Assembly (NCBI GenBank): GCA_016178135.1
Contig: JACOTW010000010.1
Location: 1-44,853 of the forward strand
Source of the DNA: Candidatus Saccharimonadota bacterium
Lineage (GTDB): Bacteria; Patescibacteriota; Saccharimonadia; Saccharimonadales; JACOTW01
Direction of reading: 5' to 3'
Length of the DNA stretch: 44,853 bases
The translations under genes and the position numbers were made by a program. Position 1 is the stretch's first letter. Each line of letters begins with the position of its first letter. Below are positions 434 through 41,572 of this stretch, in pieces. Below the pieces are notes generated by a model, which saw only the letters and a list, made by a program, of their open reading frames with translations, did no database searches and was not told the DNA's origin.

Positions 434-591
434 CTCGACTCACCCGAAACTCCTCCATCCCCAGACCGAATTCTATCGGCTGCAAACAGTTTTTCTTCTC
501 TCTATGTACCTTCAGGTACCTCTCCTTCAGACAAAACTGTTTTCGCTCGAGCTGATTCGTCCTGGGAACGAGGGATTTTGCGTAAGTCCAG
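434..591. mobile_element. Family A MITE, subtype A1, 158 bp, intergenic
   Basis: Ends CTCGACTCACCCGAAA / TTTGCGTAAGTCCAG; homologous to copies at 12020, 23586, 26976; flanks TTTA/TAGA do not match. Confidence 0.9.
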
Positions 592-616
592 TAGAGTCCC
601 TAAAATGTAAAGGTGA

Positions 617-812
617 TATAGCCCCCGCAAAACAAATTCCCGACTTTTCGAATCACCCTCTTTGGCCCAAAACCGCCTTTCCTCGTTCAACGTATCTAAG
701 GATATGTCTCTCTCGGAAAAGTCAGTTTTTGGCTCAAAGATCATTGCTTCAAAAACTTTGGCTCAAAGATCATTGCTTCAAAAACCCACGAATTTGTTTT
801 GCGGGGGCTATA
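617..812. mobile_element. Family B MITE with internal 29-bp tandem duplication
   Basis: TATAGCCCCCGCAAAACAAATTC ... GAATTTGTTTTGCGGGGGCTATA; duplication 728-756/757-785; near-identical to 6641-6807 in opposite orientation. Confidence 0.92.
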
Positions 813-872
813 GCTTCGGTATCTATGGCGAAACATTTTAGGTTGTTTTAAAGAGGTTTTACATAAGACCAG

Positions 873-1817
873 TCAATACTGATATGGCGTGAGCCAGTGA
901 GCGAATTGTTTTTTATCGCCCCTCAAAACAGCTGCGTAATATTTCATGAGTTTTGCCGTAATCGGACCAATGTAACCATCCCCAATCAGGCGTTTATCTA
1001 CCGACAAAACTGGCGTTATTTTGGCACTAGACCCGCACATAAAAACCTCATCCGCCAAATACAGTTCGCTTCTATCAACACTCCGTTGCTCATGCGCAAG
1101 CTTTAAACTATCTGCGATAGCTAGCACACTATTACGAGTAATACCTTCTAATATATCAGTGGAGCCATCGGGAGTTATCAACTTTCCATCGCGGACGATA
1201 AACAAATTAGCAACCGTACCTTCAGCAACATGACCATGCTCGTCCATAGCAATAGCCTCGTCATAGCCGTTTAGTAAGGCTTCGTTTTTCATCAAACCGG
1301 CATTGGCATAGTTGCCGTTCACTTTGGCACGAGGAGGTATAGCGTTATCTGGAGTTCTAGTCCAACTACTCACGCAAACATCAATTGCATCTTTACCATG
1401 TAAACTACCCATCGGATAGATATAGGCACTGAAGGAATTGGTTAGACCACGCATCTTGGTACCAGGGGCCAGTTCATCTATAAACACCGTTGCCCTAACC
1501 GAAACGTCCTGTTTGACGGCGTTGCGCTTGATTAGCTCTAACATAGTTGATTCAAACTTTTGATAGGACCAGTTTTGCACAAATCCACCGAAGTCCATGA
1601 TCTTAGCCGAATCCACTAGTCGGTTATAGTGATCACGTAGTCTAAAAATATAAAGTTTTTGCCGTTTATCGTTCCATGTGGCACTAAAAACCGTATAAAC
1701 ACTCAACCCGTACAAAACTGGCGCGCTGGCAATGCTCAAATTCGCATCTTCAAAAGGCACAAACTTATCACGCAAATAAACTTCTGTTTGGTTCAAATTG
1801 AATCGTGTGTTTTTCAT
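873..1817 (-). CDS. ilvE: Branched-chain amino acid aminotransferase (PLP fold IV)
   Basis: LYG motif, AKVNGNY (PLP Lys), EGTVANLF, ILEGITR, DEVFMCGSSA; start taken at MKNTR. Confidence 0.88.
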   Translation of the reverse strand: MKNTRFNLNQTEVYLRDKFVPFEDANLSIASAPVLYGLSVYTVFSATWNDKRQKLYIFRLRDHYNRLVDSAKIMDFGGFVQNWSYQKFESTMLELIKRNAVKQDVSVRATVFIDELAPGTKMRGLTNSFSAYIYPMGSLHGKDAIDVCVSSWTRTPDNAIPPRAKVNGNYANAGLMKNEALLNGYDEAIAMDEHGHVAEGTVANLFIVRDGKLITPDGSTDILEGITRNSVLAIADSLKLAHEQRSVDRSELYLADEVFMCGSSAKITPVLSVDKRLIGDGYIGPITAKLMKYYAAVLRGDKKQFAHWLTPYQY

Positions 1818-1818
1818 A

Positions 1819-6420: not shown

Positions 6421-6645
6421 ATGAACGAACGCTTCGATAAATACGAATTTATGAGACCAGCCTCGTCGAGGAAGGCCACGGCAACAGCCCTAGTATTAGC
6501 CGGCCTAACCATGCCGGGAGTGTTTTTTGGATGGCTAAACGCCAGAAATGATGACGAAAGACTAAATCAGGCACGATTAGAACTAGCTACTACTCAACAG
6601 ACCTTATATGATCCTGCACTGTTCAATGAACAAGTGGAATTATAG
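6421..6645 (+). CDS. Small membrane protein whose stop codon lies in the end of a family B element (possibly truncated)
   Basis: ATG, TM segment; TAG at 6643-6645 is within the TATAG end of the element. Confidence 0.5.
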   Translation: MNERFDKYEFMRPASSRKATATALVLAGLTMPGVFFGWLNARNDDERLNQARLELATTQQTLYDPALFNEQVEL

Positions 6646-6807
6646 TCCCCGCAAAACAAATTCGTGGGTTTTTGAAGCAATGATCTTTGAGTCAAAAACT
6701 GACTTTTCCGAGAGAGACATATCCTTAGATACGTTGAACGAGGAAAGGCGGTTTTGAGCCAAAGAGGGTGATTCGAAAAGTCGGGAATTTGTTTTGCGGG
6801 GGCTATA
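6641..6807. mobile_element. Family B MITE, full length (159-bp core with TATA flanks)
   Basis: TATAGTCCCCGCAAAACAAATTC ... GAATTTGTTTTGCGGGGGCTATA. Confidence 0.92.
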
Positions 6808-6879
6808 GCTGGCAAGATTCATGATGCTAAGCACAATGACGAATTATGGCAAGGCCCAGTCGTTGAGATGATCTGTATA

Positions 6880-7209
6880 CTGGATTTACGTAAAATCGCC
6901 CGTTCCCAGGCTAAATCAGCTCGAGCAGATAGTGGTTTGCCTGAAGAAGAGGTAGCTTTAGGGCTAATTAACATCTATCCGTTGATAGCGAATCTTTAGC
7001 AGCTGTCATGATTTTTATTCTGTTTTCTTGGCTTTTGGTCGTACCTATCGGTACGAACCGAAAACAAAAAACAGATTAAAAGTGACAGACCTGAAGATTT
7101 TAGCCGACAGATAGATGTTAATTAGCTCTTGGCTACATCGAGAGAAGACAGACCGCTACCAGCCGAGATTAGTTGGTCTGGGGATGGGGGAGCTTTGCGA
7201 CAGGTCCAG
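6880..7209. mobile_element. Family A MITE, subtype A2 (159-bp variant), interrupted by a family C element
   Basis: CTGGATTTACGTAAA ... TTTGCGACAGGTCCAG; TATA duplication 6876-6879/7210-7213; 330 bp minus 171 bp insert = 159 bp. Confidence 0.9.
6961..7128. mobile_element. Family C palindromic MITE (168 bp) nested in family A
   Basis: Ends GGGCTAATTAACATCTATC / GATAGATGTTAATTAGCTC (1 mismatch); flanks TTA/TTG; centre CGTACC-TATC-GGTACG. Confidence 0.85.
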
Positions 7210-12019: not shown

Positions 12020-12178
12020 CTGGACTTACGCAAAATCCCTCGTTCCCAGGGCGAATCAGCTCGAGCGAAAACAGTTTTGTCTGAAGGAGAGGTATCTGAA
12101 GGTACATCGATAGAGGAAAAACTGTTTGTAGCCGAGGTTAGTCGGTTTGGGGATGAGGGAGCTTTGCGATAGGTCCAG
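12020..12178. mobile_element. Family A MITE, subtype A1 (159-bp variant)
   Basis: CTGGACTTACGCAAA ... TTTGCGATAGGTCCAG; TATA duplication 12016-12019/12179-12182. Confidence 0.92.
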
Positions 12179-23585: not shown

Positions 23586-23743
23586 CTGGACTTAAGCGAA
23601 ATCGCTTGTTCCCAAATTGAATCAGCTCGAATAAAAGCAGTTTTATCTGAAGAAGAGGTATCTGTAGATACATCGAAAGCAGAAAAACTGTTTGTAGCCG
23701 AGGCTAGTCGGTCTAGAGATAAGATAGCTTTGCGTGAGTCCAT
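23586..23743. mobile_element. Family A MITE, subtype A1, diverged, 158 bp
   Basis: CTGGACTTAAGCGAAA ... TTTGCGTGAGTCCAT; TATA duplication 23582-23585/23744-23747. Confidence 0.88.
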
Positions 23744-23757
23744 TATATGCATCATTT

Positions 23758-24132
23758 TTATTTCTCCTCCAGAATAGTTGACACTAGATAGTTTACCAAG
23801 CCAATGATCATGCCGGCAAGCATTGCGGCCCAGAAATTCGTAACCTGTAATTGTGAATATAATTTACTGACCAACATGACCATAAAGCCGTTAATAATAA
23901 GCATGAAAAATCCTAGACTAAAAAGAATTGCTGGCAATGATAGGATCACCAATATCGGCTTAATGACGATATTGACCAGGGCCAAAATTAGGCCAGCAAC
24001 AACGATAACGGTCAGTCGGCTGTCATAATTTATGCCTCCGCCCACAATACCCGCGGCGATCCATAAACCAAGGCTGCATACAAACCAGCGCAGTAGAAAA
24101 CTAACAAGAGGTTTGCGTTTCATTGTTGCCAT
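23758..24132 (-). CDS. YvlD/phage-holin-4-like membrane protein
   Basis: LALVNIVIKPILVILSLPAILFSLGFF..INGF; 4 TM segments. Confidence 0.8.
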   Translation of the reverse strand: MATMKRKPLVSFLLRWFVCSLGLWIAAGIVGGGINYDSRLTVIVVAGLILALVNIVIKPILVILSLPAILFSLGFFMLIINGFMVMLVSKLYSQLQVTNFWAAMLAGMIIGLVNYLVSTILEEK

Positions 24133-25355: not shown

Positions 25356-25489
25356 AATCAGCCTATAAGTATAGCAGTTCAAGACCACCCAGTACATACT
25401 TCACGCCCAACGCCCGCCCATCAACTGGATCCTGACATTCTATTACCCCCCTTTGCTCGGGGTATGACCCAATAGCACTACGGGGGGTG

Positions 25490-27142
25490 TTAATTTAGGT
25501 ATCGGTGGAGAAGGGTTGCTTTGGTTTTACCTATAACTTGTTCTAAGGATAAGAGAGAGGCTTGTGTTAAGCCGTGCATACTACCAAAAGTTTTGAGGAG
25601 TTTTTTACGAGTGGCTGGACCAATACCTGGTATATCATCCAGTAAACTAGCAGTTGCACGTTTGGTTTTCAAGGTAGAGTGGTAGCTGACGACAAAACGA
25701 TGCGATTCGTCTCTAATACGCTGGAGTAGTTTTACCAAATTAGTATTATGCGGCAGATTTATCAGTACAAAATCACCAGATTCCGTCACAAAACCGTCCA
25801 ATTTATGGAGTGTTTTCGGATCTATTGTCACATTTGACGCATGTTTATTGATCACGATTTGCTCTTCGCGTTTAGCAAGACCAACCATAGGTACATCGCC
25901 AACTCCTCGTGCGTCGCGGGCTTTTATGGCCATTTCTAACTGACCCTTGCCACCATCTATAAGTATAAAGTTTGGTTTGGGCCATCTTTTTAGATTAGTT
26001 TCGCTAAAACGACGCTCGATTGTTTCATGCATATTATAAAAATCATTATTTTGGTCTTTTTTGGTTTTGAACTTACGATATTCGCTTTTGTTACTCGCCC
26101 CATTAGTAAACACCACCATGCTGGCCACCACATCCGTGCCGCTCATATGGCTGATGTCATAACCCTCAATCCGGCGCGGAAAGGCTTTTAAACCCAATAA
26201 ATCAACCAATTCATTGAGGGCGTGATCTTTGCTAATGTCCAGAAATTCTTTGTCACTAAATATTACTTGTTGATTCAGTCGTTTCAAGGCAAATAACTGA
26301 TTTCTTGTCTTCGCCGCCGCTTCAAACTGTGAAGTTTTGGCAAATTGTTTCATGTCTTTTTCTAATTCTTTTTCGATATTTTTACGCTTACCTTCAATAA
26401 CAGCTATCAAGCGTCGCAAATTTGCCCGATAATCTTCTAATGACGTTTTACCCTCCTCAAGCCCTGGGTCTAAACCTAAATGATAATGCAGTGTCGCTCG
26501 TTTTTGCCCAGGTGTCTGGCTAGTAGTAAATGGGAAAATTCGTCTCAAAAATTTGAGGGCCTGACGAACGCTTTGCGTACTTAAATATGGGCCAAAATAA
26601 TGCGCGCCATCGTCTAACGGACGGCGTGTAGTGGTGACAGTCGGGAAGTTGTCATCATAATTGATGCGAATATAAACCATCGATTTATCATCGCGAAGCA
26701 AAATATTATAGCGTGGCATATAACGCCGAACCATCTCGGCCTCCAAAAACAACGCCTCAAGCTCACTATCCACCACCATCCAATCGACATCAGCAATTTC
26801 GGCTATTAGGGCTTGGGTTTTTGGATCACGACTCCGACTTTTTTGAAAATATTGTCGTACACGATTTTTCAGAACCGCCGCCTTGCCCACGTAAATAATC
26901 TCGCCCTTGCTGTTTTTATGAAAGTAAACCCCGGGCGATTGGGGTAAGTTTTTTAATTTGGTGACCAAGCCTTTACTGGACTTACCCAAAATCGCCCGTT
27001 TCCGGAGTGAATTATCTCCAGCGAAAACTGTTTTATCTGAAGGAGAGGCACCTGAAGATACATCGGAAGAAGAAAAACTATTTGCAGCCGATAGAATTCG
27101 ATCTGGGGGTGGAGGAGTTTTGGGTAAGTTGAGTTTATGCAT
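25490..27142 (-). CDS. uvrC: Excinuclease ABC subunit C with an in-frame 54-aa MITE insertion near the N-terminus
   Basis: LPQSPGVY..IIYVGKA..RVRQYF, IEGYDISH, IDGGKGQ, RDESHRF, HhH. Confidence 0.95.
   Translation of the reverse strand: MHKLNLPKTPPPPDRILSAANSFSSSDVSSGASPSDKTVFAGDNSLRKRAILGKSSKGLVTKLKNLPQSPGVYFHKNSKGEIIYVGKAAVLKNRVRQYFQKSRSRDPKTQALIAEIADVDWMVVDSELEALFLEAEMVRRYMPRYNILLRDDKSMVYIRINYDDNFPTVTTTRRPLDDGAHYFGPYLSTQSVRQALKFLRRIFPFTTSQTPGQKRATLHYHLGLDPGLEEGKTSLEDYRANLRRLIAVIEGKRKNIEKELEKDMKQFAKTSQFEAAAKTRNQLFALKRLNQQVIFSDKEFLDISKDHALNELVDLLGLKAFPRRIEGYDISHMSGTDVVASMVVFTNGASNKSEYRKFKTKKDQNNDFYNMHETIERRFSETNLKRWPKPNFILIDGGKGQLEMAIKARDARGVGDVPMVGLAKREEQIVINKHASNVTIDPKTLHKLDGFVTESGDFVLINLPHNTNLVKLLQRIRDESHRFVVSYHSTLKTKRATASLLDDIPGIGPATRKKLLKTFGSMHGLTQASLLSLEQVIGKTKATLLHRYLN
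26976..27133. mobile_element. Family A MITE (A1, 158 bp) in-frame in uvrC
   Basis: TTTA duplication 26972-26975/27134-27137; removing 162 bp gives MHKGLVTKLKNLPQSPGVY. Confidence 0.92.
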
Positions 27143-27147
27143 AAATA

Positions 27148-28002
27148 TTACACCATGACTGAACTATGTTGCTCGCAGTTGTTAGTTTTAGTAGCACAAT
27201 CTACACAAGCTAGAACAAGGCGGTTGCAACTTTTGTCTTCACAATTGATATGATTGCTAGTTTGATTGTCGCAGTGAACGCAAATTCCAATATCTTTGGA
27301 CTTATTAGAAAAAGCTATATTAAGCCGTTCATCAAAAACGAAACACTTGCCCTCCCAATGACCCGAGTCTCTATATTCTTCACCGTATTTTACAATGCCA
27401 CCGTCCAAATGATAGACCTCATCAAAACCCTTATGTTTCATGTAAGCGCTCAAGTATTCACAGCGCACATCGCCAGTGCAGTAGGTCAAAATAGGCTGAT
27501 CTTTTGGCAATTTATCTAACTCTGATTTTATATCACGGAAGTTTTTGATCTTCGGCTTTATAACATTTTTACCCTTAAAGGCACCTATTTCACTTTCATA
27601 ATCATTACGAGCGTCAAGAATGACTACATCTGGATGCTTATCAATATATTCGTGCCACTGTTTTGGCTTGAGTCCTTTTGTGCTATTAAAAACATTGAAC
27701 TGCTCGTCTGGGGCCAGAGTTACTAGTTCTTTGCGAACTTTTACGCTTAGTTTAGGGAAATCATCAGCGTTACCATCGCTCCATTTATACTGAATTTTCT
27801 TAAATAACGGGTGCTTGTTCATGTCTCGAATATACATTTTGATATTTTCTATCTGACCGCCAAGCGTACCGTTGATACCATTCTCCGAGATTATAATCCG
27901 ACCTTTTAGATTTAGCCGTTCACATAAATTACGCTGCCAAAACATTACGGTTTCTGGATCGGCTACCGGTACAAATTTATAAAAAAGAATTATTTTTTGC
28001 AT
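27148..28002 (-). CDS. trhO: Rhodanese-domain tRNA uridine(34) hydroxylase (TrhO/YceA)
   Basis: LFYKF, GINGTLGG, DARNDYESEIG, YCTGDVRCE, GKCFVFDER. Confidence 0.88.
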   Translation of the reverse strand: MQKIILFYKFVPVADPETVMFWQRNLCERLNLKGRIIISENGINGTLGGQIENIKMYIRDMNKHPLFKKIQYKWSDGNADDFPKLSVKVRKELVTLAPDEQFNVFNSTKGLKPKQWHEYIDKHPDVVILDARNDYESEIGAFKGKNVIKPKIKNFRDIKSELDKLPKDQPILTYCTGDVRCEYLSAYMKHKGFDEVYHLDGGIVKYGEEYRDSGHWEGKCFVFDERLNIAFSNKSKDIGICVHCDNQTSNHINCEDKSCNRLVLACVDCATKTNNCEQHSSVMV

Positions 28003-28028
28003 ACTTTAACTATTTTACCTCTGTTAGT

Positions 28029-29774
28029 TTAACGAAGCAATAACAAAGCAGCGATAACTACCCCAAATAATACAGCGATAATAATTATGGCAGGTGGCAA
28101 TGTTTGCGACCGTTGACTGGACTTAGGTGCAACGCCAAAACCATTGGCCCCATAAGCCGAGGGCATTGACTTGCTAGTGTTGTGCGGACTCTGGTTAGAG
28201 ATGGAACCATAGGCTGCATCATCGTTTTTATTGAACTCACGCGAAATCTCTCGTTCTTGGAGTAAACTGGACTTACCCAAAACCCCTCGTTCCCAGAGCG
28301 AATCAGATCGAGCAAAAACAGTTTTATCTGAAGGAGAGGTACCTGATTTACTGTGTCTTAAATGCTCCTGTGAATCTTGGCGATGTAAGCTATCAATTAG
28401 AATAGTTTCAAAACGATTACCGCTCAAAAATTCGCGCACTACACGTCTTAAGCCTATCGTATCAAGCCGACCCGCTTCATACATCTGTTTTACGCTAACA
28501 CCCCCTGATTCCATGTGTTTTGCCACCTCCAGAAGCTCAATCAAGGACATAGTTTCCGTCTTTTTAGGAGCTTCCTGGGCAGCTATCGGTAGCACCTCCA
28601 TTTTTGGCAACACCATTTTTGCCAACCTCTCCGCTTTTACTGGCAATCTATTTTCTGTCCGCTTTTCTTGTTTATTTTCACGATGCGTATCTAGCCGATC
28701 GGTCAATACCGGCCTAGCGATTCCCGGCTTATGTTTGATTGTGAGAGGGGCAAGTTTACGAATTTTTTCTTCGCGATCTGAAATACTAATCTGCAAGTTT
28801 TTTACTTCTTTGGTTAACTTTTCCTGAATGGGTAGCAATCGCTTTTCTGTTTTAATCCGCCCGCGGCGTCGACCAATTAAATAACCCACGATGCCGCCCG
28901 TCAAAACATCGCCGACTCTTTGATGACGTAACGGCAAGACCTTTGGGCTGGTATCCATGGCGTTTGGAGCTGGAGCTACAACATCTGACTCACTCAATAT
29001 CGAGATTGGAGGCACACCCAAACTTGACGGAGGTGCCGATGCGGAAACGGCGATCGGATTAACTGTAACTGGCCGATCATCTTCGGTTTCTTCGGCAATA
29101 TCAAGATCATTCATAGTATCTACCAAAATTTTATCGAGCAAATCTTCGTTAATTTCCTCATCACCATCCAAACCTTCCTGAATATTTTCCAGAAGCATAG
29201 CATTGGCTACGACGGCTGCCTCCTCCGGACTGTCCGGCTCTAATTGGTCAAGTTCCTGTTTTACATCTTCAGTTCTGGCTTGTACATATTGTTCTATGAC
29301 AAATCTTTGTTCGTTGTTCGTCAATTTCTCAAGATTTTTCGATTTGTCTTCTTGTTCTGATTGCTTACTAGACTCTTGCGCAATTTCCTCGTCATCATAT
29401 CTAATAACCTCGGTTACTTGAGTTGATTCACCTTGGAAACGAGGGGTTTTGGGTAGACTGGACTTACGCAAAGCTCCCCCATCCCCAGACCAATTCATCT
29501 CGGCTGGTAGCGGTCTGTCTTCTCTCGATGTAGCTATGGCTACCTCTCCTTCAGTCAAACCACTCCCAACTCGAGCTGATTTAGCCTGGGAACGGGCGAT
29601 TTTACGTAAGTCCAGTAGATCTTGCTTATCGTCTGTAACAATTTCAAAAATTGGTAATTTTTTGTTGGATTTTTTGTTCTTCTTGTCTTTTTTCTCGGCA
29701 ATATCAAAAAAACTCTCAAACGAACTCATCATTCGTTTATCGTTGTCCGAGTTATCGCTACCCGATATTTCCAT
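28029..29774 (-). CDS. Hypothetical protein (acidic, C-terminal TM) with several in-frame MITE-derived segments
   Basis: 581-aa uninterrupted ORF; GGIVGYLIGRRRGRIKTEK; element peptides near both ends. Confidence 0.8.
   Translation of the reverse strand: MEISGSDNSDNDKRMMSSFESFFDIAEKKDKKNKKSNKKLPIFEIVTDDKQDLLDLRKIARSQAKSARVGSGLTEGEVAIATSREDRPLPAEMNWSGDGGALRKSSLPKTPRFQGESTQVTEVIRYDDEEIAQESSKQSEQEDKSKNLEKLTNNEQRFVIEQYVQARTEDVKQELDQLEPDSPEEAAVVANAMLLENIQEGLDGDEEINEDLLDKILVDTMNDLDIAEETEDDRPVTVNPIAVSASAPPSSLGVPPISILSESDVVAPAPNAMDTSPKVLPLRHQRVGDVLTGGIVGYLIGRRRGRIKTEKRLLPIQEKLTKEVKNLQISISDREEKIRKLAPLTIKHKPGIARPVLTDRLDTHRENKQEKRTENRLPVKAERLAKMVLPKMEVLPIAAQEAPKKTETMSLIELLEVAKHMESGGVSVKQMYEAGRLDTIGLRRVVREFLSGNRFETILIDSLHRQDSQEHLRHSKSGTSPSDKTVFARSDSLWERGVLGKSSLLQEREISREFNKNDDAAYGSISNQSPHNTSKSMPSAYGANGFGVAPKSSQRSQTLPPAIIIIAVLFGVVIAALLLLR
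28233..28346. mobile_element. Two nested partial family A ends inside the hypothetical gene
   Basis: Degenerate end 28233-28266, then CTGGACTTACCCAAA...AGGTACCTGA at 28267-28346. Confidence 0.75.
29458..29615. mobile_element. Family A MITE (A2, 158 bp) in-frame, adjacent to an older A remnant (about 29418-29457)
   Basis: TAGA duplication 29454-29457/29616-29619; encodes LDLRKIARS...GALRKSS. Confidence 0.93.
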
Positions 29775-34608: not shown

Positions 34609-35241
34609 TTAGAAAAAATACCTGAAGATATTAACTGTAATTTCCCCAAAAGCAATTACCAAACCAATACCTGCCACACCCACTACGCATCCGAACAAAA
34701 ACAACAAAGAATCGCTAAAAATTAACCCGAGAGCAACTACTACGGCACCAAGCGAAGGGATAGTATCAAGACCTGAAAATGGTGGCGCCAAAAAAGCACT
34801 AAGTGCTAAAGTAAAAAAAATAGCACCAGCCAAGCGCGTAAAATAAAAATTATTAATAAGCCCTCTCAAACGTGGTCTGGAAAACTTCTCAAACCATTGA
34901 ATTCGATCAATCATAAACGGTATAGTTTTTTTTTGAAACATTTCTCCAAACTCCTTTTTGCGCCAACTTTTAGGCAACCACAAGGTTTTCATACCAACAA
35001 TCATCTCTAAACTTAAAAGCATGACAATAAGTTCAAATACGTGAGTCACACCTCCTGTTGGCAATGGCAATGCTGGTATGAACATGAGAAACAAAATAGC
35101 TACAGCAAAACCGCGTTCTTCAAAAATCATCTCCAACGAACCCAGTGTTTTTTTGTCATTATTATCAAGCCACTCTTTAAATTGCTGGCTAAAAAGTTGC
35201 TTAGAGCCTATGCTAGGTAGTTTCTTGGGTGTTGAACTCAT
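34609..35241 (-). CDS. ExoD-like membrane protein
   Basis: FIPALPLPTGG..LWLPK..FSRPRL..PFSGLDTIP; start at MSSTPKK with TACACT 6 nt upstream. Confidence 0.78.
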   Translation of the reverse strand: MSSTPKKLPSIGSKQLFSQQFKEWLDNNDKKTLGSLEMIFEERGFAVAILFLMFIPALPLPTGGVTHVFELIVMLLSLEMIVGMKTLWLPKSWRKKEFGEMFQKKTIPFMIDRIQWFEKFSRPRLRGLINNFYFTRLAGAIFFTLALSAFLAPPFSGLDTIPSLGAVVVALGLIFSDSLLFLFGCVVGVAGIGLVIAFGEITVNIFRYFF

Positions 35242-35275
35242 AAGCCCAGTGTAACAAACAATGGTCAATAATATA

Positions 35276-35434
35276 CCGGACCTACCCAAAGCTCCCCCAT
35301 CCCCAGACCAATTCATCTCGGCTGGTAGCGGTCTGTCTTCTCTCGATGTAGCTATGGCTACCTCTCCTTCAGTCAAACCACTCCCAACTCGAGCTGATTT
35401 AGCCTGGGAACGGGCGATTTTGCGACAGGTCCAG
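35276..35434. mobile_element. Family A MITE (A2, 159-bp variant), intergenic
   Basis: TATA duplication 35272-35275/35435-35438; interior essentially identical to 29458-29615. Confidence 0.93.
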
Positions 35435-35451: not shown

Positions 35452-36876
35452 CTATAGGATACTTTGGCCGTACAATTCAAGTTCTTCTAGCAAATAACGA
35501 GCATTATCGGATAGGTCGGTTCGTGTCCGCAACTCCTTTAAACGGGCAAAATAACGTGCTATCCAGCTTTCAGTATTGCCACCAAGCAGTTTATGCTCTT
35601 TGAATTTTTCCCAGATAGCTCGATCTTTATCATTCAAAACTTTTGGATAATTTCTAGCCTTGTAGAGTGGCAGAAGCGCACTCAATCGCTCATCGCTAAA
35701 CTCAACATCGAGCGTAGATAATTCGTTCGGCTTCGTCGTTCTTACCAAACGCATCTTGCTACGATCCTGATCATCAAAAAAACCGTCATACAGCCTAGCA
35801 TCCACATTACTTTCGTCTAGCAATGTTGAGGTTTGTTGTTCATCCAGAATTTTAAGAGCAGCTAGTAGATGTTCGGTAAAATCTGGCTGGCTAGTTAATT
35901 TTTTATAATTTTTCCGTATTTGATCGAGCGGTAATTCCAGACGCAACTGACTGGCTTCATCTAAAACACTTAACGGAGCAACGGCCGGACAATGATTAAA
36001 CTGCAATGTTTTGACGGGTAGTCGCACGCCTGGATCATCGGCTCGACGACGCCAAGCTTCAGTCAAAGCTTTCGGGGTGAGTCCGAAGAATTCTTCTGGA
36101 TCATAGCGCAAATCATACACTAACATTCCTTGTCTGGCTGGATGTTTGGCTATGATCGCCCCCGCTGTGGTTTTTTCAAATTCACCCTGATATTTGCCAG
36201 AGGTATACAAAAACAATTGATTGGTATTAATGAATTCAGCAACTTTCTTTTTTTCGCGCAGAGTAAGTAGAAAATCGAAGAGCTTCGGCTGCTTGGCACG
36301 AATCAACTTGGCAACGGCAATCGAAGCATTAACATCGCTAAGAGCATCATGAGCATTGGAATGGTCAAGTTTATTGGCAATCGTTAAAAGTTCTAGGCGA
36401 TTTGATGGCTGACCATTACTGTCAAATGGCCATTTAATACCTTCGGGGCGTAGTGCTCTAGTCATCCGTACTACATCCAACAAATCCCAACGAGACCTCC
36501 CATCCTGCCACTGCCATTCATATGGATCATAGAAATTTCGATAGTGCAAAAAACGCATGAATTCATCATCAAAACGAATAGTATTGAAACCTACGAATAT
36601 CGTGCCAGGTCGGGCGATATCCTGATGAAATAAACTCAAAAATTCAGCCTCACTAATACCATCGGCAAGAGTTTTTTGTGGCGTTATACCTGTCAGCAAA
36701 ATAGCATCTGGATCGGGTAATATGTCTTCAGTTAATCTAATATAGTAATTATGTGGCTCTTCGACTGGTTCCAGATCTAAGGTTGTTCGCTGGCCAGCAA
36801 ACTGCATGATGCGTGCTTCCCGCGGATTGAAACCAGTAGTCTCTAAATCATAGAAATAAAAAGTCGGTTGGCTCAT
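35452..36876 (-). CDS. sbcB: Exodeoxyribonuclease I
   Basis: FYDLETTG, RFDDEF, AHDALSDV (DEDDh); start at MSQPTF. Confidence 0.92.
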   Translation of the reverse strand: MSQPTFYFYDLETTGFNPREARIMQFAGQRTTLDLEPVEEPHNYYIRLTEDILPDPDAILLTGITPQKTLADGISEAEFLSLFHQDIARPGTIFVGFNTIRFDDEFMRFLHYRNFYDPYEWQWQDGRSRWDLLDVVRMTRALRPEGIKWPFDSNGQPSNRLELLTIANKLDHSNAHDALSDVNASIAVAKLIRAKQPKLFDFLLTLREKKKVAEFINTNQLFLYTSGKYQGEFEKTTAGAIIAKHPARQGMLVYDLRYDPEEFFGLTPKALTEAWRRRADDPGVRLPVKTLQFNHCPAVAPLSVLDEASQLRLELPLDQIRKNYKKLTSQPDFTEHLLAALKILDEQQTSTLLDESNVDARLYDGFFDDQDRSKMRLVRTTKPNELSTLDVEFSDERLSALLPLYKARNYPKVLNDKDRAIWEKFKEHKLLGGNTESWIARYFARLKELRTRTDLSDNARYLLEELELYGQSIL

Positions 36877-36888
36877 AGAGCTAATAGT

Positions 36889-36959
36889 ACACGATTTTCG
36901 CACTTTTCCATTGACCTTTGGTCACACCAAGAAACAATGAAAAAGTGCAAAACTCGTGT
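36889..36959. repeat. Family D hairpin (25-bp arms, 22/25 match) between obgE and sbcB
   Basis: ACACGATTTTCGCACTTTTCCATTG ... CAATGAAAAAGTGCAAAACTCGTGT. Confidence 0.75.
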
Positions 36960-36972
36960 TATTTTGTGTAAA

Positions 36973-37065
36973 CTGGACCTGTTGCAAAATCCCTCGTTCC
37001 CAAAGCGAATCAGCTCGAGCCGAGATTAGTCGGTCTGGAGATGGGGGAGCTTTGCGTCAGTCCAG
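36973..37065. mobile_element. Internally deleted family A MITE (93 bp) supplying the obgE C-terminus and stop
   Basis: Both termini present; TAAA duplication 36969-36972/37066-37069. Confidence 0.9.
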
Positions 37066-38486
37066 TAAAACTCAATTTCTCCTAAGGATGGATTGCCAAA
37101 AATAATTTTGTCGTCTGTTTTTATACCTTGGCGAGTGAGCTCATGCATAATGCCCATTTTTTTCATAATATCACGTAGGCGCCGTACACCAGCCGAATTA
37201 GCAAAATCAGTTCTAGCGGCAAAACGTTCAATTTTTTTGCCGGTAATCTCATAACCTCGACTGATTTTTTTAACATGCCAAGCTTCTTCATTCTCAATCG
37301 TTAAAATTGGCAATGAACTGACCTCGTTAACCTCGTCAGGTTGTTTGGCGCGCTCCGTATCAACAATAGTTTTTAGCTTATACAATAATTCAGATATATT
37401 TTGTTTGCTCTGTGAAGATATAGCTACTACAGACACACCTTTGGGAAGAGCTTTTTTAAGTGTTTTGATATGATTAGCGACTATTTTGTCGTCAAGACCT
37501 TCAATTTTGGTCAATGCCACTATTCGTGGACGCTTTGATAAATCTATCTTGTAGGCTTTTAGCTCGCCTTCAACTATCTTGAACGATTCTACAATATCTT
37601 CATCATAAACGTCTATCAACTGTAGGAGCACGCCAGTTCGTTCCACGTGTCGTAAAAACTCGTCGCCCAGCCCTTTGCCTTGACTCGCCCCTTCTATGAG
37701 TCCCGGGATATCGGCAATCAATAGACTAGACTTATCGTCAATATCCACTACTCCTAGATTTGGAGTAAGTGTAGTGAATGGGTAGTTAGCAATTTCTGGC
37801 TTGGCATTACTAACGCTGGCCAAAAGAGTAGATTTACCGGCATTTGGTAGACCGATCAATCCAACATCGGCAATCATTTTCAGTTCTAATGTTACGGAAA
37901 ACTCCTGGCCCTTTTCGCCCTTTTCTGCTACTTGTGGTGCTTGACGAGTAGACGAAACAAAATGAGCGTTGCCAAATCCGCCCTTGCCACCCTTGGCCAA
38001 AATAACTTCTTGACCATCAACTGTCAAATCGGCCAATAGTTGGGCGTGTTCGTTTAAACTCGACTTACGCGAAATCTCTCGTTCTCGGTGTAAATCAGCT
38101 CCAACTAAGTCTGTTTTATCTGAAGAACTGTTAGCATTCGAGATTATTTGGTCTGGGGATGGGGGAGCTTTGCGTAAATCCAGTTTAGGTGATTTGAGCA
38201 TAACCGTCGTACCAACAGGTACCGCCACTCGCGTATCAGTGCCACTTCTACCATGTTTTTTTCTTTTGTCGCCAGGTTTGCCAGATTGAGCAATTAACTC
38301 TCTTTGATAACGAAAATTGGCAAGTGTGTTTTGATTGCGACTGGCTACGAATATGATATCGCCACCATCGCCACCATCGCCACCATCCGGTCCACCTAGA
38401 CGGATATATTTTTCATGACGAAAACTAACCCGCCCATCGCCACCACTACCGGCCTTTAATGTAACTTCTGCTTTATCCACAAACAT
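37026..38486 (-). CDS. obgE: GTPase ObgE/CgtA with internal MITE-derived insertion and MITE-derived C-terminus
   Basis: MFVDKA..GGPDGGDGG, GLPNAGKST, YPFTTL, DIPG, TKIE. Confidence 0.97.
   Translation of the reverse strand: MFVDKAEVTLKAGSGGDGRVSFRHEKYIRLGGPDGGDGGDGGDIIFVASRNQNTLANFRYQRELIAQSGKPGDKRKKHGRSGTDTRVAVPVGTTVMLKSPKLDLRKAPPSPDQIISNANSSSDKTDLVGADLHREREISRKSSLNEHAQLLADLTVDGQEVILAKGGKGGFGNAHFVSSTRQAPQVAEKGEKGQEFSVTLELKMIADVGLIGLPNAGKSTLLASVSNAKPEIANYPFTTLTPNLGVVDIDDKSSLLIADIPGLIEGASQGKGLGDEFLRHVERTGVLLQLIDVYDEDIVESFKIVEGELKAYKIDLSKRPRIVALTKIEGLDDKIVANHIKTLKKALPKGVSVVAISSQSKQNISELLYKLKTIVDTERAKQPDEVNEVSSLPILTIENEEAWHVKKISRGYEITGKKIERFAARTDFANSAGVRRLRDIMKKMGIMHELTRQGIKTDDKIIFGNPSLGEIEFYWTDAKLPHLQTD
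38059..38183. mobile_element. Family A MITE remnant (125 bp, 33 bp shorter than full length) in-frame in obgE
   Basis: CTCGACTTACGCGAAA ... TTTGCGTAAATCCAG; encodes LDLRKAPPSPDQ...EISRKSS. Confidence 0.88.
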
Positions 38487-38535
38487 ATATACCTAGAATA
38501 CAGGGGTTAGGTCAACTAGTCCAGACTGGACCCGT

Positions 38536-39651
38536 CTAGCGATAAATGTAGCGTGGAAAACGAGACACAGGAACCCAGTCGCTATAACCAACCCTGCCCC
38601 AGCCAGCCAGACCATTCATATCAGAATATTTTATCTGGGAACCATCGGGAGAAACTGCCTCCACAACCCCAACATGTCCGGCATAACCAGCGTCAGTCTG
38701 TAAAATAGCACCCTGTACAGGCGCAGTACTTACTGTCCACCCACTTATACGAGCCACATTATCCCAGGTATTGGCATTACCCCAGTTGGACGGCACAGCA
38801 ATCTTAGAAGCAACATACCAAGTACAAAAGCCATAAGCATAAGCGTTATGTCCATAAATAGCCGACGAACCAAAAGAAAAACCAACCAAATAATTTGACG
38901 CAACACGCGTCGTGGCTATAGTGCCATCAGGAATTACAATTTTATCGCCAACTATTAGGCCACTCACTTCAGCATCATTTATTGCAATTAACGCGTCTTT
39001 GTTAGCGCTATATTTTCGGGCAAGACTATCCGGAGTATCGCCAGCTTTGACCACATAAACAATACCGTTGACGGGGGGTATATTAAGCTCTTTGGCTTCG
39101 GGTACATTATTGCCGTTTAAATCGTTAGACCACCTAATACTATCCGAAGTTACGCCAAATTTAGCAGCTATACTACCAACGTTATCGCCAGCAACCACCG
39201 TGTATGTCTGAATGTCTTTTTTGGATTTAAGCGCCGTAGCTACAACCTGTGGCTTAGATATAACTTGTTCGTCAGATGAGGCGAAACTTAACTGGGCGTT
39301 AACCGAATCAGCCTGCTCACCAACCGACGGCGCTTCAAATAAATTAGCTAATCTAGCAGCCTGCACCGCGATATCAGCCGAAGATATTTGATCTAAGGGG
39401 TTGGCGGCGGCAAATTCCGAATCATTAGCCAACGCGCTCTGACGAATACTTTCGCCAGAACTTGGATTTCTAACCACAAAACTAATTACCCCTATCAACA
39501 AGGCAATATTAGCAGTTAACAGACCGTAACGAATAATGCGTTTACGGGATTTATTATAAGCTCGGCGTAAAATACGCCGACTAACTTTTGGTAAACCTAA
39601 CCGCTGCGAAAGCGATCCAGTGATGATACGAATAAATGCTCCGTCCCACAT
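38536..39651 (-). CDS. LysM x2 plus CHAP peptidoglycan hydrolase
   Basis: YTVVAGD..IAAKFGV, YVVKAGDT, YAYGFCTWYV..WGNANTW..GHVGVVE. Confidence 0.9.
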   Translation of the reverse strand: MWDGAFIRIITGSLSQRLGLPKVSRRILRRAYNKSRKRIIRYGLLTANIALLIGVISFVVRNPSSGESIRQSALANDSEFAAANPLDQISSADIAVQAARLANLFEAPSVGEQADSVNAQLSFASSDEQVISKPQVVATALKSKKDIQTYTVVAGDNVGSIAAKFGVTSDSIRWSNDLNGNNVPEAKELNIPPVNGIVYVVKAGDTPDSLARKYSANKDALIAINDAEVSGLIVGDKIVIPDGTIATTRVASNYLVGFSFGSSAIYGHNAYAYGFCTWYVASKIAVPSNWGNANTWDNVARISGWTVSTAPVQGAILQTDAGYAGHVGVVEAVSPDGSQIKYSDMNGLAGWGRVGYSDWVPVSRFPRYIYR

Positions 39652-39789
39652 GTGTGGGATACACCTGAAGGGTTAGTTCTTATTATTTACAGGACAGTTC
39701 GACCAATCCTGATTATTACTTTACGCCTTAGGGTAACAACCCGCGTATGCCCGACTCAAAAGAGACGCCAAAGGGGAAGTTACCGGAAA

Positions 39790-39818
39790 ATTATAGCAAA
39801 ATAACCGCTGGAAGGCAA
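39790..39818 (-). promoter_or_regulatory. Sigma70 promoter for the LysM-CHAP gene
   Basis: Minus strand TTGCCT-17bp-TATAAT with extended TG. Confidence 0.6.
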
Positions 39819-39843
39819 TCTTTTTTACAGCTATTTATCCCCG

Positions 39844-40875
39844 TTAAGAGCATAGTTTTTTACAGTGCTTGACAGTTAGGGCTTCGTGTTCGGCTAGGGT
39901 ACGCGAAAAATATGTGATGCCGTCATCCCCTGCAACAAAATATAAATAATCGGTATTGCTGGGATTTGCCACTGCCGTAAGCGACGCCAAACTTACATTA
40001 CTAATTGGGCCTGGAGTTAATCCGACATGCAGATGAGTATTAAATGGCGAGTCATAAGTAAGTGAGGCATCTTTACCAGCAATTATTGAACCATAGAAAG
40101 CCGTAACGTCCGAGCCAAGCATCATGCCTTCTCGAAATCTCTTAATAAAGACCTGTGCTACAGTTGGCTTATCTTTGGGGTTATTAACCTCTTGATCGAC
40201 TATTGATGCTAGTATAACTCCTTCGTGAACAGTCAGGCCCTGCTTAATAATTCCAGCCCTTAGTTCAGGGGTCAAGTGTTTATTCATTTCATCCAACGAA
40301 GCTCGAATAATCGTTTCCACCTTGGTGCTATTTGTTTTCTGGAATGATTCCGGATATAAATAACCTTCTAGTGAAGCTTCTTTGGGTTTATTCGCCAGTG
40401 CTGGATGATCCAAATAAAGTGCAGGATTAAGTGCCAGGTCAACATTAGTCGCTGTAAATCCAGAATTAATTAGTGCTTGGCGAATCTGATCTAGGCGTTG
40501 ACCTGGCAAGATAGTTACCAGATCCGTTTTTATTTTGCCTTGAGAAATAATCGCCACAATCTCCTGAACGCTTTGATTGGATCGAAGCAAATATGTTCCA
40601 GCTTGTAACTTGTCGCGGATATTTTGAAAACGAACATACCATTCAAAGGCCCAGGTAGATTTAATAAGACCCTTGTCTTGAAGAATAGTGCCAATTTCTT
40701 TTATTCCAGTTCCAGATGGTATGGTGATCTGCTGAACGTGCTGGGAAGCATTCACCGGTTTCAGGTTTTCCAAATAAATATGTCGCGTTGCAAAAATTGC
40801 CCCGCCAAGTAAAACTACTAGGGTCAAGACAATAACTACTAGTGGTCTAAGCCATCGTTGACTAGATTTACGCAC
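39844..40875 (-). CDS. mltG: Endolytic transglycosylase MltG
   Basis: LQAGTY, LEGYLYPESF, LASIVDQE, SPFNT..GLTPGPISN, YLYFVA. Confidence 0.92.
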   Translation of the reverse strand: MRKSSQRWLRPLVVIVLTLVVLLGGAIFATRHIYLENLKPVNASQHVQQITIPSGTGIKEIGTILQDKGLIKSTWAFEWYVRFQNIRDKLQAGTYLLRSNQSVQEIVAIISQGKIKTDLVTILPGQRLDQIRQALINSGFTATNVDLALNPALYLDHPALANKPKEASLEGYLYPESFQKTNSTKVETIIRASLDEMNKHLTPELRAGIIKQGLTVHEGVILASIVDQEVNNPKDKPTVAQVFIKRFREGMMLGSDVTAFYGSIIAGKDASLTYDSPFNTHLHVGLTPGPISNVSLASLTAVANPSNTDYLYFVAGDDGITYFSRTLAEHEALTVKHCKKLCS

Positions 40876-40969
40876 AAATCCCTCTTTTCCGAAGCAAATC
40901 AGCTTGACACCAGTTTCGCAAAATCGTCCATTCCCAGAGTGAATTATCTCGAGCGAAAACTGTTTTCCC
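40862..40969. mobile_element. Two degenerate partial family A ends
   Basis: CTAGATTTACGCACAAATCCCTC.. and CGCAAAATCGTCCATTCCCAGAGTGAATTATCTCGAGCGAAAACTGTTTT. Confidence 0.7.
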
Positions 40970-41572
40970 TAAACTGGACTTACGCAAAATCGCCCGTTCC
41001 CAGGCTAAATCAGCTCGAGTTGGGAGTGGTTTGGCTGAAGGAGAGGGAGTCGTAGCTACATCGAGAGAAGGCAGACCGCTATCAGCCGAGATTAGTTGGT
41101 CTGGGGATGGGGGAGCTTTGCGTAAGTCCAGTAAAGTAATATAGCCCCCGCAAAACAAATTCGGGGGTTTTGGAGCCGATGATCTTCGAGTCAAAAACTG
41201 GCTTTTCCGAGGGAAGCATATCATTAGATAAGGTGAGTGAGGAAAGACAGCTTTTGGTTCGGCCTTTAGAGAGGTCAGTGCTTCGTCTTGTAAGTAAATG
41301 TCTTTTTGAGTTTTTTGGCCCAAATTTTCGGCAAACTTTCGCACAATTTTTGTTTGGCCGGTATCTTGCCCGTCCAGGCCTCGTGGTAGCCCAACAATAA
41401 TAGTTTGCACTTGTTCTTTTACGCACAATTCTTCCAGATAGTCCCAAATTTTTTCATCATTTAATACCGTGTCATAGGGATGTGCCAAACGAGCCACGCT
41501 ACTAGCAATAGCCACTCCAATACGTACATTGCCAATATCAAGGGCCACAAATTTATGGATTGCTGGTGCCAT
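40868..41572 (-). CDS. ruvX: RuvX/YqgF with its C-terminus replaced by MITE-derived sequence (possibly non-functional)
   Basis: ALDIGNVRIGVA, IIVGLP, QDEALTS; then family B and A peptides. Confidence 0.8.
   Translation of the reverse strand: MAPAIHKFVALDIGNVRIGVAIASSVARLAHPYDTVLNDEKIWDYLEELCVKEQVQTIIVGLPRGLDGQDTGQTKIVRKFAENLGQKTQKDIYLQDEALTSLKAEPKAVFPHSPYLMICFPRKSQFLTRRSSAPKPPNLFCGGYITLLDLRKAPPSPDQLISADSGLPSLDVATTPSPSAKPLPTRADLAWERAILRKSSLGKTVFARDNSLWEWTILRNWCQADLLRKRGICA
40974..41131. mobile_element. Family A MITE (A2, 158 bp) in-frame in the ruvX ORF
   Basis: Perfect 15-bp terminal repeats; TAAA duplication 40970-40973/41132-41135. Confidence 0.93.
41140..41258. mobile_element. Diverged partial family B MITE read in-frame in ruvX
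   Basis: TATAGCCCCCGCAAAACAAATTCGGGGG...; encodes PKAVFPHSPYL...NLFCGGY. Confidence 0.85.

Follow-up and report, generated by a model that had tools for sequence, protein, structure and literature searches.

The present study confirmed that a short repeat, family A, is a real repeat family. It is very probably a non-autonomous DNA transposon (MITE) whose insertions are tolerated only where translation runs through them. The window analyzed was one whole contig (44.9 kb) of a 0.8-Mb genome. The ten two-ended copies listed in the original prediction were all present in the window, together with partial copies:

434 to 591, minus strand: full 158-nt copy between ORFs; flanks TCTA and TAAA in element orientation, unmatched
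6880 to 7206, plus strand: copy split at its centre into halves at 6880-6962 and 7131-7206; TATA repeat outside
6963 to 7130: nested 168-nt palindromic element inside the 6880 copy
12020 to 12178, plus strand: 159-nt copy whose 3' terminus is the longer variant, outside long ORFs; TATA repeat
23586 to 23743, plus strand: 158-nt copy, bridged by a contig from another study, downstream of a holin-like gene (23758-24132); TATA repeat
26976 to 27133, plus strand: 158-nt copy forming UvrC codons 4-57 on the minus strand; TTTA repeat
28267 to 28345, plus strand: partial copy (model positions 1-79) in a 581-aa ORF, at about codons 477-503
29458 to 29615, minus strand: 158-nt copy forming codons 54-107 of the 581-aa ORF, in the same orientation; TAGA repeat (plus strand)
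35276 to 35434, minus strand: 159-nt copy at the 5' end of an ExoD-like gene (34609-35376); TATA repeat, with which its length is not a multiple of three
36973 to 37065, plus strand: 93-nt internal-deletion copy overlapping the obg stop codon; TAAA repeat
38059 to 38183, plus strand: 125-nt internal-deletion copy forming Obg residues ~102-144 on the minus strand, inside the GTP1_OBG domain (125+4=129, or 43 codons)
40914 to 40971, plus strand: partial copy (model positions 7-64) encoding the final residues of the RuvX ORF
40974 to 41131, plus strand: 158-nt copy forming RuvX ORF residues 158-211 on the minus strand; TAAA repeat

The terminal 15-mer (up to two mismatches) occurs 15 times in the window against 0.16 expected, and none of 100 shuffles contained as many. 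A genome-wide search of 799,899 bp on 14 contigs found 223 non-redundant loci, 100 of them full length; they occupy 3.1% of the sequence and lie on all 14 contigs. Full-length copies measure 125-182 nt, with a mode at 158 nt (n=57) and further groups at 159 nt (n=17) and 160 nt (n=11). The median identity between nearest-neighbour copies is 95.6%. Family A has 15-16-nt inverted ends (CTGGAC...GTCCAG), with the terminal inverted repeats CTGGACTTACGCAAA / TTTGCGTAAGTCCAG and a variant terminus 1 nt longer; the latter forms one end of the 159-nt copies at 12020 and 35276. The consensus is 56% self-complementary and folds into a predicted hairpin of -52.9 kcal/mol (z = -4.4). Only two 52-codon frames of the consensus are open, which leaves no room for a transposase. 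Short length, the absence of a transposase gene, terminal inverted repeats, target-site duplications and many dispersed copies are the features of a MITE, and the genome-wide counts strengthened this assignment, which had been made on the window alone. Named public records with family A are all Saccharibacteria or Saccharimonadales MAGs, except one called just "bacterium", in agreement with the CPR origin that had been proposed for the window.

Misassembly had been raised as a concern with the original prediction. Two contigs from a different study (Logan; 6,845 nt and 4,442 nt) cover 23000-28272 and 36505-40946 with no differences and bridge four window copies. Since the Logan contigs shown end at the high-identity copies 29458, 35276, and 40974, these copies are without independent bridging.

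An exact 4-bp repeat flanks 53 of the 100 full copies, and 15 of 24 full copies in other genomes. The left flank reads T (95), W, W, A (97), the right flank reads T (93), W, W, A (93), and positions further out show no preference. In the window, the exact TNNA repeats reported earlier at eight of the ten copies (TATA four times, TAAA twice, TTTA, and TAGA) were all recovered; copies 434 and 38059 have no matching flanks. Nearest neighbours share an identical flanking 4-mer in 5 of 35 cases against 5.8 expected. Because the 4-mer is independent of element lineage, it derives from the target. Family A inserts at T-W-W-A sites and duplicates them.

The distribution of family A in genes follows the reading frame. 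We defined "deep inside" as lying 30 or more codons away from either end of an ORF that is itself 150 aa or longer, with ORF classes taken from our own ORF rules rather than from a gene caller. Twenty-seven of the 66 full copies with a length plus 4 divisible by three lie deep inside long ORFs (26 genes), against 0 of the other 34 (Fisher p=1.9e-6); this is the outcome of the genome-wide tally of coding and intergenic copies that had been proposed. In-silico excision of these 34 copies restored no real gene, the sole candidate adjoining a tRNA end. Variants 1-2 nt longer occur outside genes or at gene edges only. Off-size internal copies keep the frame (125+4, 152+4, and 161+4), and 20 of the 123 partial loci also reside in frame in genes. 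Internal copies have the same orientation as the host gene in 14 cases and the opposite orientation in 13. Codon phase 0, the sole stop-free phase, is used by 26 of the 27; the one copy read in another phase has lost both stops of that frame.

The consensus of 57 genomic 158-nt copies is stop-free only in the frame from the terminal CTG, on both strands, which upholds what the window had suggested, and the peptides beginning LDLRKIARSQ and LDLRKAPPSP were read as described in the 581-aa ORF, UvrC, Obg, and the RuvX ORF. A 158-nt copy and its 4-bp duplication make 162 nt and, therefore, add 54 codons. This core size stood as the commonest form in the genome, but only five of the ten window copies have it (434, 23586, 26976, 29458, and 40974). 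The frame rule suggests that family A is translated through. Landing in phase 0 in either orientation would leave a gene intact, and the ~54-aa peptide translated from the element would be hydrophilic and poorly ordered, placed in loops, linkers, and termini. Insertions in other phases and the variants 1-2 nt longer would break genes, and both are confined to gene edges or to sequence outside genes.

Multiple-of-three length, a single phase, and the absence of stops, all found in internal copies, would not be needed if the element never reached the protein, whether through RNA splicing, DNA excision in expressing cells, or a bypass of the hairpin during translation, leaving normal proteins. 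The strong predicted RNA hairpin could signal such processing or bypass. However, the copy in another phase would not have had to lose its two stops, Rfam matched only tRNAs on the window, with no intron and no further RNA family, and none of the 40 proteins scanned has a Pfam family of the intein or Hint type. We consider this explanation highly improbable. A 54-aa insert is also smaller than the size of an intein. The identity of family A as an intein or intron was rejected, with no Hint/intein domain on host proteins and no self-splicing RNA on the window.

Pfam families were assigned to 22 of the 26 host genes, and 4 host ORFs are without one; the Pfam scan of 40 host proteins gave no family common to all. 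The hosts include Obg, DHFR, TruB, KsgA, MnmA, PriA, DnaX, UvrD, and Mur ligase. A domain match is split by or encloses the element in Obg, an epimerase, DHFR, TruB, KsgA, MnmA, an AddA-like helicase, and an LPG-synthase-like membrane protein, and the element lies between domains in Mur ligase, PepN, PriA, UvrD, and an RsuA-like synthase. The host genes in the window are as follows:

25490 to 27142, minus strand: uvrC, 550 aa; GIY-YIG begins at residue 70
28029 to 29774, minus strand: 581-aa ORF without a Pfam family, acidic, with a C-terminal hydrophobic stretch
37026 to 38486, minus strand: obg, 486 aa (orthologues 418-430 aa)
40868 to 41602, minus strand: ruvX ORF, 244 aa

The original prediction placed the element inside conserved proteins and proposed a search for empty sites in orthologues. 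This holds for Obg: orthologues in all 25 relatives lack the segment, and the 23 that were aligned all have a gap of 48-49 columns exactly at the element. Empty sites were also found for TruB and the RluD-like synthase, for each of which 11 of 12 relatives are without the segment and have both flanks contiguous. In the predicted Obg structure (Obg only; alignment of 24 rows), the strands flanking the insert have pLDDT values of 81-92 and the insert 47-64. The UvrC insert is N-terminal, three codons past the start (MHK, element, KGLVTKLKNLPQSPGVYF), and N-terminal cases such as this could start translation downstream of the element. The claim did not hold for RuvX. The ORF matches orthologues (frames of 133-157 aa) only at residues ~5-125; residues 114-158 are a family B repeat (41133-41278), followed by family A. 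Family A in RuvX is part of a repeat-derived C-terminal tail that replaces the normal C-terminus and not an internal insert.

This loss of the normal RuvX C-terminus, together with the small genome, would be expected if the host genes were dead or dying and the insertions marked decay in a reduced genome; host-dependent lineages with small genomes lose genes. In contrast, the host ORFs keep their full length and are conserved on both sides of the element (for Obg, 49-67% identity to its 23 orthologues on either side of the insert), and no frameshifts or stops were found in the 26 host genes. Many hosts, such as Obg, DnaX, PriA, and Mur ligase, are normally essential. Frame-breaking variants are absent from genes and, therefore, selection is still acting on the hosts. 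Gene decay is hardly credible as an explanation.

The inserted peptide is probably tolerated filler rather than a functional module. A domesticated module retained because of its sequence, such as a tag for interaction or localisation, might account for the occurrence of the peptide in many housekeeping proteins and for stop avoidance outside genes, where both frames are open in 25 of 33 copies against 9.0 expected under uniform mutation. However, a column shuffle explains most of this avoidance (21.1 expected against 25 observed). When codons were compared with the consensus, the non-synonymous to synonymous ratio was 6.5 for internal copies in the translated frame, 6.6 for the frame of the untranslated strand, and 4-5 for other copies, with no sign of purifying selection. 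Moreover, the two orientations encode unrelated peptides at near-equal frequencies (14 and 13), positions in different proteins are unrelated, and the confidence of the insert is low in the Obg model. A functional module is, thus, very unlikely.

The untranslated strand is also open in 23 of 24 internal copies, and diverged relatives of family A in other genomes often have no open frame. Since stops are avoided outside genes, the untranslated strand stays open, and the relatives are often closed, it is conceivable, at somewhat less than even likelihood, that selection among element lineages made family A coding-neutral both ways (its length plus the duplication divisible by three, and neither strand with stops). 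This would be the sole way to multiply with almost no non-coding space; ORFs cover ~84% of the genome. If so, Saccharibacteria would have in this element a continuing source of protein insertions, some of them perhaps co-opted later.

Transposition would be performed by a staggered-cut transposase supplied in trans. A transposase flanked by the same termini, which the original prediction suggested looking for, was not found: no autonomous element with family A ends was detected in the 96.7%-complete assembly or in the fetched loci, and no paired termini in the genome enclose a transposase. None of nine transposase Pfam families occurs in the genome. It contains two broken rve remnants without family A ends, and the intact rve insertion sequences of two other genomes (G032 and G027) have different ends. 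Where family A termini stand alone in other MAGs, they belong to truncated copies.

Two Y1_Tnp genes (192 and 204 aa) are the only transposase-family genes found intact in the genome. Of 5 genomes with the element, 4 have Y1 genes, compared with 7 of the 36 other genomes (p=0.014, although kin are not independent). These genes are what would be expected if Y1/HUH (RAYT-like) transposases, rather than a DDE enzyme, moved family A as a REPIN-like palindromic doublet, a scenario that would leave the coding consequences unchanged. However, variable, target-derived 4-bp duplications are the mark of staggered cuts, and we know of no HUH enzyme that makes these. To our knowledge, REPINs are extragenic and have not been reported with target duplications. 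The 3 kb on each side of the two Y1 genes contain no copy of family A, B, or C, and G032 carries family A without a Y1 gene. Mobilization by Y1/HUH enzymes is, thus, unlikely. Family A shares with REPIN/RAYT systems (for REP families, see PMC3733652) palindromic doublets and a genome that also has Y1/HUH transposase-like genes. It differs in its target-derived duplications and in having no copy that flanks Y1 genes, and was not assigned to REPIN/RAYT.

No prior description of family A was found in the literature searched; the in-frame behaviour itself is known from Rickettsia palindromic elements (RPEs). Correia/NEMIS, RUP, ERIC, and BOX elements are chiefly intergenic and act on transcription or RNA stability, and we know of no systematic in-frame residence of these elements in housekeeping genes. 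These elements are listed in PMC10969869. They resemble family A as short non-autonomous repeats with inverted ends, high copy numbers, and hairpin-forming transcripts. The Coxiella burnetii MITEs QMITE1 and QMITE2 (~50 copies), in the excerpt of PMC5896051, overlap annotated ORFs and are occasionally in frame or supply a C-terminus (the enhC extension). According to the same excerpt, they lie mostly in hypothetical genes or gene ends, whereas 22 of the 26 internal hosts of family A belong to recognisable conserved families, with several domains interrupted. Coding palindromes in Nematomorpha mitochondria also place inverted repeats within protein-coding genes with both arms coding; however, as outlined in the excerpt of PMC6649704, these are organellar, eukaryotic, perfect long inverted repeats, while family A is dispersed with target duplications.

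RPEs are the closest in behaviour, as the original prediction had noted. The account of RPEs in part of PMC10969869 (citing Ogata et al. 2000, 2002) gives 44 insertions in R. conorii genes and describes ~150-bp palindromes with an open frame that sit in frame in numerous conserved but unrelated genes of a small genome, forming translational fusions. Family A is similarly palindromic with an open frame and in frame in many unrelated conserved genes. Compared with RPEs by their description in that part, it belongs to Saccharibacteria/CPR and not to Alphaproteobacteria, and has clear terminal inverted repeats, 4-bp TWWA target duplications, near-equal orientations, and, in the variants 1-2 nt longer of the same genome, a natural control. 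Family A was not filed as an RPE because its named carriers are Saccharibacteria MAGs.

The same part of PMC10969869 presents frequent in-frame residence in housekeeping proteins as a Rickettsia speciality that might exist elsewhere. Family A clearly adds a second case, from a lineage (CPR) that is unrelated and very streamlined, with a built-in control in variants 1-2 nt longer that are never inside genes. Repeat-derived segments in essential proteins will confront gene callers, orthology tools, and structure predictors. The host genes also represent ~26 natural experiments on where known folds tolerate 54 extra residues, and family A offers a simple source of lineage-specific protein insertions in CPR genomes.

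The window is contig C9 in its entirety, from an assembly of 799,899 bp in 14 contigs, with 43% G+C and a completeness of 96.7%. The 15-nt terminus of family A, a ~158-nt MITE with CTGGAC...GTCCAG inverted ends, occurred 15 times in the window with no more than two mismatches (0.16 expected), and repeat finding in the window recovered the family in both orientations. A 15-mer match at 2762, inside ddl, was attributed to chance; it was not recovered by a profile built from seven window copies. When run over the whole genome, this profile gave 323 matches, which corresponded to 223 non-redundant family A loci with a total of 24,987 bp (3.1% of the genome); 100 of the 223 loci covered the model from end to end. 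After copy ends were fixed on the CTGGAC/GTCCAG hexamers, full copies measured 158 nt (n=57), 159 nt (n=17), or 160 nt (n=11), and the lengths of the others were spread over 125-182 nt. In the 159- and 160-nt forms, one or both termini have an extra base, with CTGGACCTGTCGC replacing CTGGACTTACGC. The copies form sub-lineages: the median nearest-neighbor identity is 95.6% (maximum 98.1%), against an all-pairs median of 78.5%. As RNA or single-stranded DNA, family A is predicted to form a long hairpin (-52.9 kcal/mol, z = -4.4) with its 16-bp termini at the base, and an Rfam scan of the window returned tRNAs only.

The ten window copies named in the original prediction are all real, and eight have the exact 4-bp repeats described. 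The proposed 158-nt core was correct for five of the ten, but not for the following five.

Window copies of family A that deviate from the 158-nt core
12020: family A, 159 nt
35276: family A, 159 nt
6880-7206: family A split mid-copy by another 168-nt palindromic repeat
36973-37065: family A, 93-nt deletion form
38059-38183: family A, 125-nt form

The 158-nt consensus is stop-free in the frame from its first base on both strands, as had been read from the window sequence, and only in that frame; the other four frames contain two to three stops each. An insertion with its 4-bp duplication lengthens the target by 162 nt (54 codons). We took the longest stop-free frame across each full copy and, under our own ORF rules, regarded the copy as internal when 30 codons or more separated it from both the first start and the stop of an ORF of at least 150 aa. 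In this tally of genic and intergenic copies, 27 of the 66 copies for which (length+4) was divisible by three were internal, in 26 genes, versus none of the 34 for which it was not (Fisher p=1.9e-6). The internal copies divide 14 to 13 between the two orientations of reading, and 26 of the 27 are in phase 0. Internal copies of odd length remained in frame (125+4, 152+4, and 161+4). The single phase exception, at C4:26578-26735 (locus L009) in a 609-aa DUF2142-like membrane protein, is read in the +1 frame, and the two stops of the consensus +1 frame are absent from this copy. The in silico excision of the 34 frame-breaking copies did not restore any gene; the single candidate, a seemingly restored 185-aa ORF at C8:76387, was spurious and adjoins a tRNA 3' end and a fragment of family B, another repeat. 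Partial family A loci were inside long ORFs in 20 of 123 cases. Since 84% of the genome lies in ORFs of at least 100 aa, family A is depleted from genes overall, and the genic copies that remain keep the frame. We consider it almost certain that family A is a MITE family retained within genes only if the frame is preserved, and very likely that it is translated through in its host genes.

A Pfam scan of all 26 internally hit ORFs assigned families to 22. The positions of family A relative to the host domains, together with copies near gene starts and ends, are listed below.

Host proteins and the position of family A
Obg: GTP1_OBG match in two stretches, insert at residues 102-144
NAD-dependent epimerase: domain match interrupted
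DHFR: domain match interrupted; profile position 85 resumes at residue 140
TruB: domain match interrupted; profile position 63 resumes at residue 146
KsgA/RsmA: domain match interrupted
MnmA: domain match interrupted, C-terminal barrel
AddA-like helicase: UvrD_C match interrupted
LPG-synthase-like membrane protein: domain match interrupted
FtsJ/TlyA, ROK, TsaE, NUDIX, and RluD-like synthase: element abuts a truncated profile match
Second pseudouridine synthase, Mur ligase, aminopeptidase N, and PriA: element between or after domains
UvrD/PcrA, DnaX, glycosyltransferase (two copies), and DUF2142-like protein: element between or after domains
UvrC, MiaA, HtrA, prepilin peptidase, IscS, and FemAB: copies near gene start or end, in frame in the longest ORF

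In the N-terminal cases of the last group, translation may start downstream of the element. The UvrC copy lies after codon 3 (MHK, 54 aa, then KGLVTKLKNLPQSPGVYF), and GIY-YIG begins at residue 70. We also noted a cluster of five family A copies on contig C4, across three neighboring genes.

Neighboring genes with clustered family A copies
C4:23366-24817: glycosyltransferase, two copies in frame
C4:24764-25957: LPG-synthase-like membrane protein, two copies in frame
C4:26009-27838: next gene, one copy

Empty sites were identified in relatives. For Obg, all 25 related genomes of the order gave two adjoining matches (residues 1-~97 and ~145-474). In a MAFFT alignment, which omits one contig-end fragment and one genome returning no locus, all 23 complete orthologues had a 48-49-column gap exactly at the element, which confirmed the empty site expected at Obg. 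TruB (matches 1-~96 and ~151-273) and the RluD-like synthase (1-~115 and ~190-354) each had an empty site in 11 of 12 relatives, with the two matches contiguous or nearly so in DNA. An AlphaFold2 model of Obg from 24 sequences had a mean pLDDT of 76.8, with 81-92 in the strands flanking the insert and 47-64 in the insert itself, which was modeled with two short helices. This prediction is compatible with the insert being an excursion from the fold, as weak evidence.

RuvX had also been proposed as the site of an internal insertion, which did not hold. In 14 of 15 relatives, the orthologous frame is 133-157 aa long, and its match to the 244-aa ORF is confined to residues ~5-125. The segment of residues 114-158 belongs to family B and has matches at dozens of other genomic sites; family A accounts for residues 158-211, and a partial A copy for the final 33. 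Therefore, the C terminus of RuvX has been replaced by read-through into nested repeats, and family A sits within this replacement. With this correction, the overall interpretation of the original prediction was supported.

Twelve runs from three studies, all of them DNA and none RNA, contain the window stretch. Contigs from a run belonging to a study that is not the likely source were identical to the window over 23000-28272 and 36505-40946. They bridge the copies at 23586, 26976, 36973, and 38059, including the UvrC and Obg insertions, without differences. The contigs listed stop at 29458, 35276, and 40974, as is expected of near-identical repeats, and these three copies are unbridged among them. 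None of the joints listed skipped exactly one element, as a presence/absence allele would.

The four bases on either side of the copies read T-W-W-A (n=100), with T in 95 and A in 97 of 100 left flanks and each in 93 of 100 right flanks. No base preference was detected beyond the flanking 4-mer in these 100 copies, and the left and right 4-mers were identical in 53. Of the 158-nt copies, 35 have exact repeats; the 4-mer was shared with the nearest relative in five of these, versus 5.8 expected from 4-mer frequencies. Since the nearest relatives do not share the 4-mer more often than expected, it derives from the target and not from the element, as a staggered cut and repair would leave it. Because the duplications are target-derived, we favor as the putative mover a staggered-cut enzyme that would act in trans and might come from a phage, a plasmid, or an IS since lost.

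Each terminus in the genome was paired with the next inward-facing one, and no transposase was found between any of the 27 pairs (282-7,191 bp), including one candidate that was read, C4:91404-92771. It was rejected as an autonomous partner: two inward-facing half copies, one with a nested family B repeat, lie on either side of an ordinary gene (324 aa; HExxH-like motif, coiled-coil-like sequence). The arrangement may have arisen by chance, or the gene may be a mobilized passenger. Eight DDE, DEDD, and TnpB families (PF01609, PF13358, PF13359, PF05598, PF00872, PF07282, PF01548, and PF01610) had no match in the genome. PF00665 (rve) had two, both broken remnants without family A ends. The remnants and the only intact transposase-family genes found in this genome, two Y1/HUH paralogues, are as follows.

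Transposase-related genes
C2:65485-66363 (L109) and C8:89981-90860 (L110): broken IS3-like and rve-type transposase remnants
C13:24701-25279 (L163): intact Y1/HUH (RAYT-like) gene, 192 aa
C3:27435-28049 (L162): intact Y1/HUH (RAYT-like) gene, 204 aa

No inverted ends resembling those of families A, B, or C (a third repeat) were present at the two remnants. The related genomes G032 and G027 have an intact rve element, the inverted ends of which differ from those of family A. Lone 18-mer termini in named MAG loci were truncated or mini copies, and no long shared element was found between them. No copies of families A, B, or C were located near either Y1 gene, and the only repeats in the flanks of these genes are two short ones, present in 2-3 copies each and unconnected with family A. 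Y1 matches numbered six in the related genome G012 and nine in G027. Y1 genes were present in four of five element-carrying genomes versus seven of 36 others (p=0.014, with kin that are not independent); G032 carries the element and has no Y1 gene.

We did not detect purifying selection on the family A peptide when internal and other copies were compared by codon differences from the consensus. By this consensus-based count, the non-synonymous/synonymous ratio was 6.5 in the translated frame of internal copies, 6.6 in their untranslated-strand frame, and 4.0-5.0 in other copies. Frame 0 is open on both strands in 1.6-3% of shuffles of random sequence of family A composition. Stops, in contrast, were avoided. 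Both frames were open in 25 of 33 non-internal 158-nt copies, a class that includes gene-end copies that are possibly translated, versus 9.0 expected (maximum 17 over 2,000 trials) under a random placement of differences. The untranslated strand was open in 23 of 24 internal copies. A column-composition shuffle gave 21.1 expected (maximum 27) against the 25 observed. This shuffle accounts for most of the stop avoidance; thus, the variation is mostly inherited from stop-free source lineages. The pattern fits, but does not prove, selection among element lineages for coding neutrality.

Family B (~168 nt, inverted ends TATAG(T/C)CCCCGCAAAACAAATTC...) has 65 loci and 23 full copies genome-wide, of which one was internal, marginally, in a 164-aa ORF. 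Partial B matches occur in long open frames elsewhere (e.g., C3:7812-7934 and C4:74956-75063), and, thus, family B is not a clean negative control. Family C is palindromic, with 168 nt, nine loci, and three full copies.

Families B and C in the window and A-C composites
617-816, 6641-6808, 18556-18701, and 41133-41278: family B, window
6963-7130: family C, window, nested in the family A centre
C4:8547-8871, C1:13266-13590, and C13:12658-12896: family C nested in the family A centre

In four places, family A is interrupted at one common model position (about 81-83); therefore, either the A centre is a hot target or the A-C composite itself moved. Separately, a 67-nt direct repeat in the window (21197-21263 and 21391-21457; 99% identical, 194 nt apart) overlaps a tRNA at 21178-21261 and may have arisen by partial duplication of the tRNA, for example as a scar left by integration.

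Among 40 related genomes, family A was present in four, all from other families of the order, at 70-89% identity. The terminal 18-mer was found in 50 stretches of a species-representative genome collection, and the profile found the element in 30, all titled Saccharibacteria, Saccharimonas, Saccharimonadia, or Saccharimonadales, except three contigs of one 'bacterium' record. Of the 20 18-mer loci without the element, 18 were from other phyla, approximately the estimated chance level for an 18-mer there; three viral contigs with the 18-mer did not contain the element. Exact 4-bp repeats flanked 15 of 24 full copies from other genomes. In-frame cases there include a 188-nt form (188+4=192) just past the start of a PurK-like gene and a copy near the C terminus of a membrane protein, and many diverged forms have no open frame. 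A peptide profile recovered 70 proteins among 1.84 billion cluster representatives, a lower bound that says little on spread because hosts cluster with insert-free orthologues. Most are short ORFs, and ~15 are longer, with the peptide at varied positions.

In Coxiella, QMITEs overlap ORFs and in some cases lengthen them (PMC5896051). For Rickettsia palindromic elements (RPE), the review PMC10969869 calls the frequency of in-frame fusion unusual and suggests that the mechanism is possible elsewhere; judged by the RPE descriptions in that review, family A shows the same behavior. Full-text literature, drawn mostly from non-subscription journals, yielded no account of an element of this kind in Saccharibacteria, Patescibacteria, or CPR. 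In contrast to RPE, family A has explicit inverted ends, target duplications, and same-genome variants that provide a natural control. We file family A as an RPE-like protein-coding MITE in a new phylum, likened to RPE by its behavior and not by its sequence.
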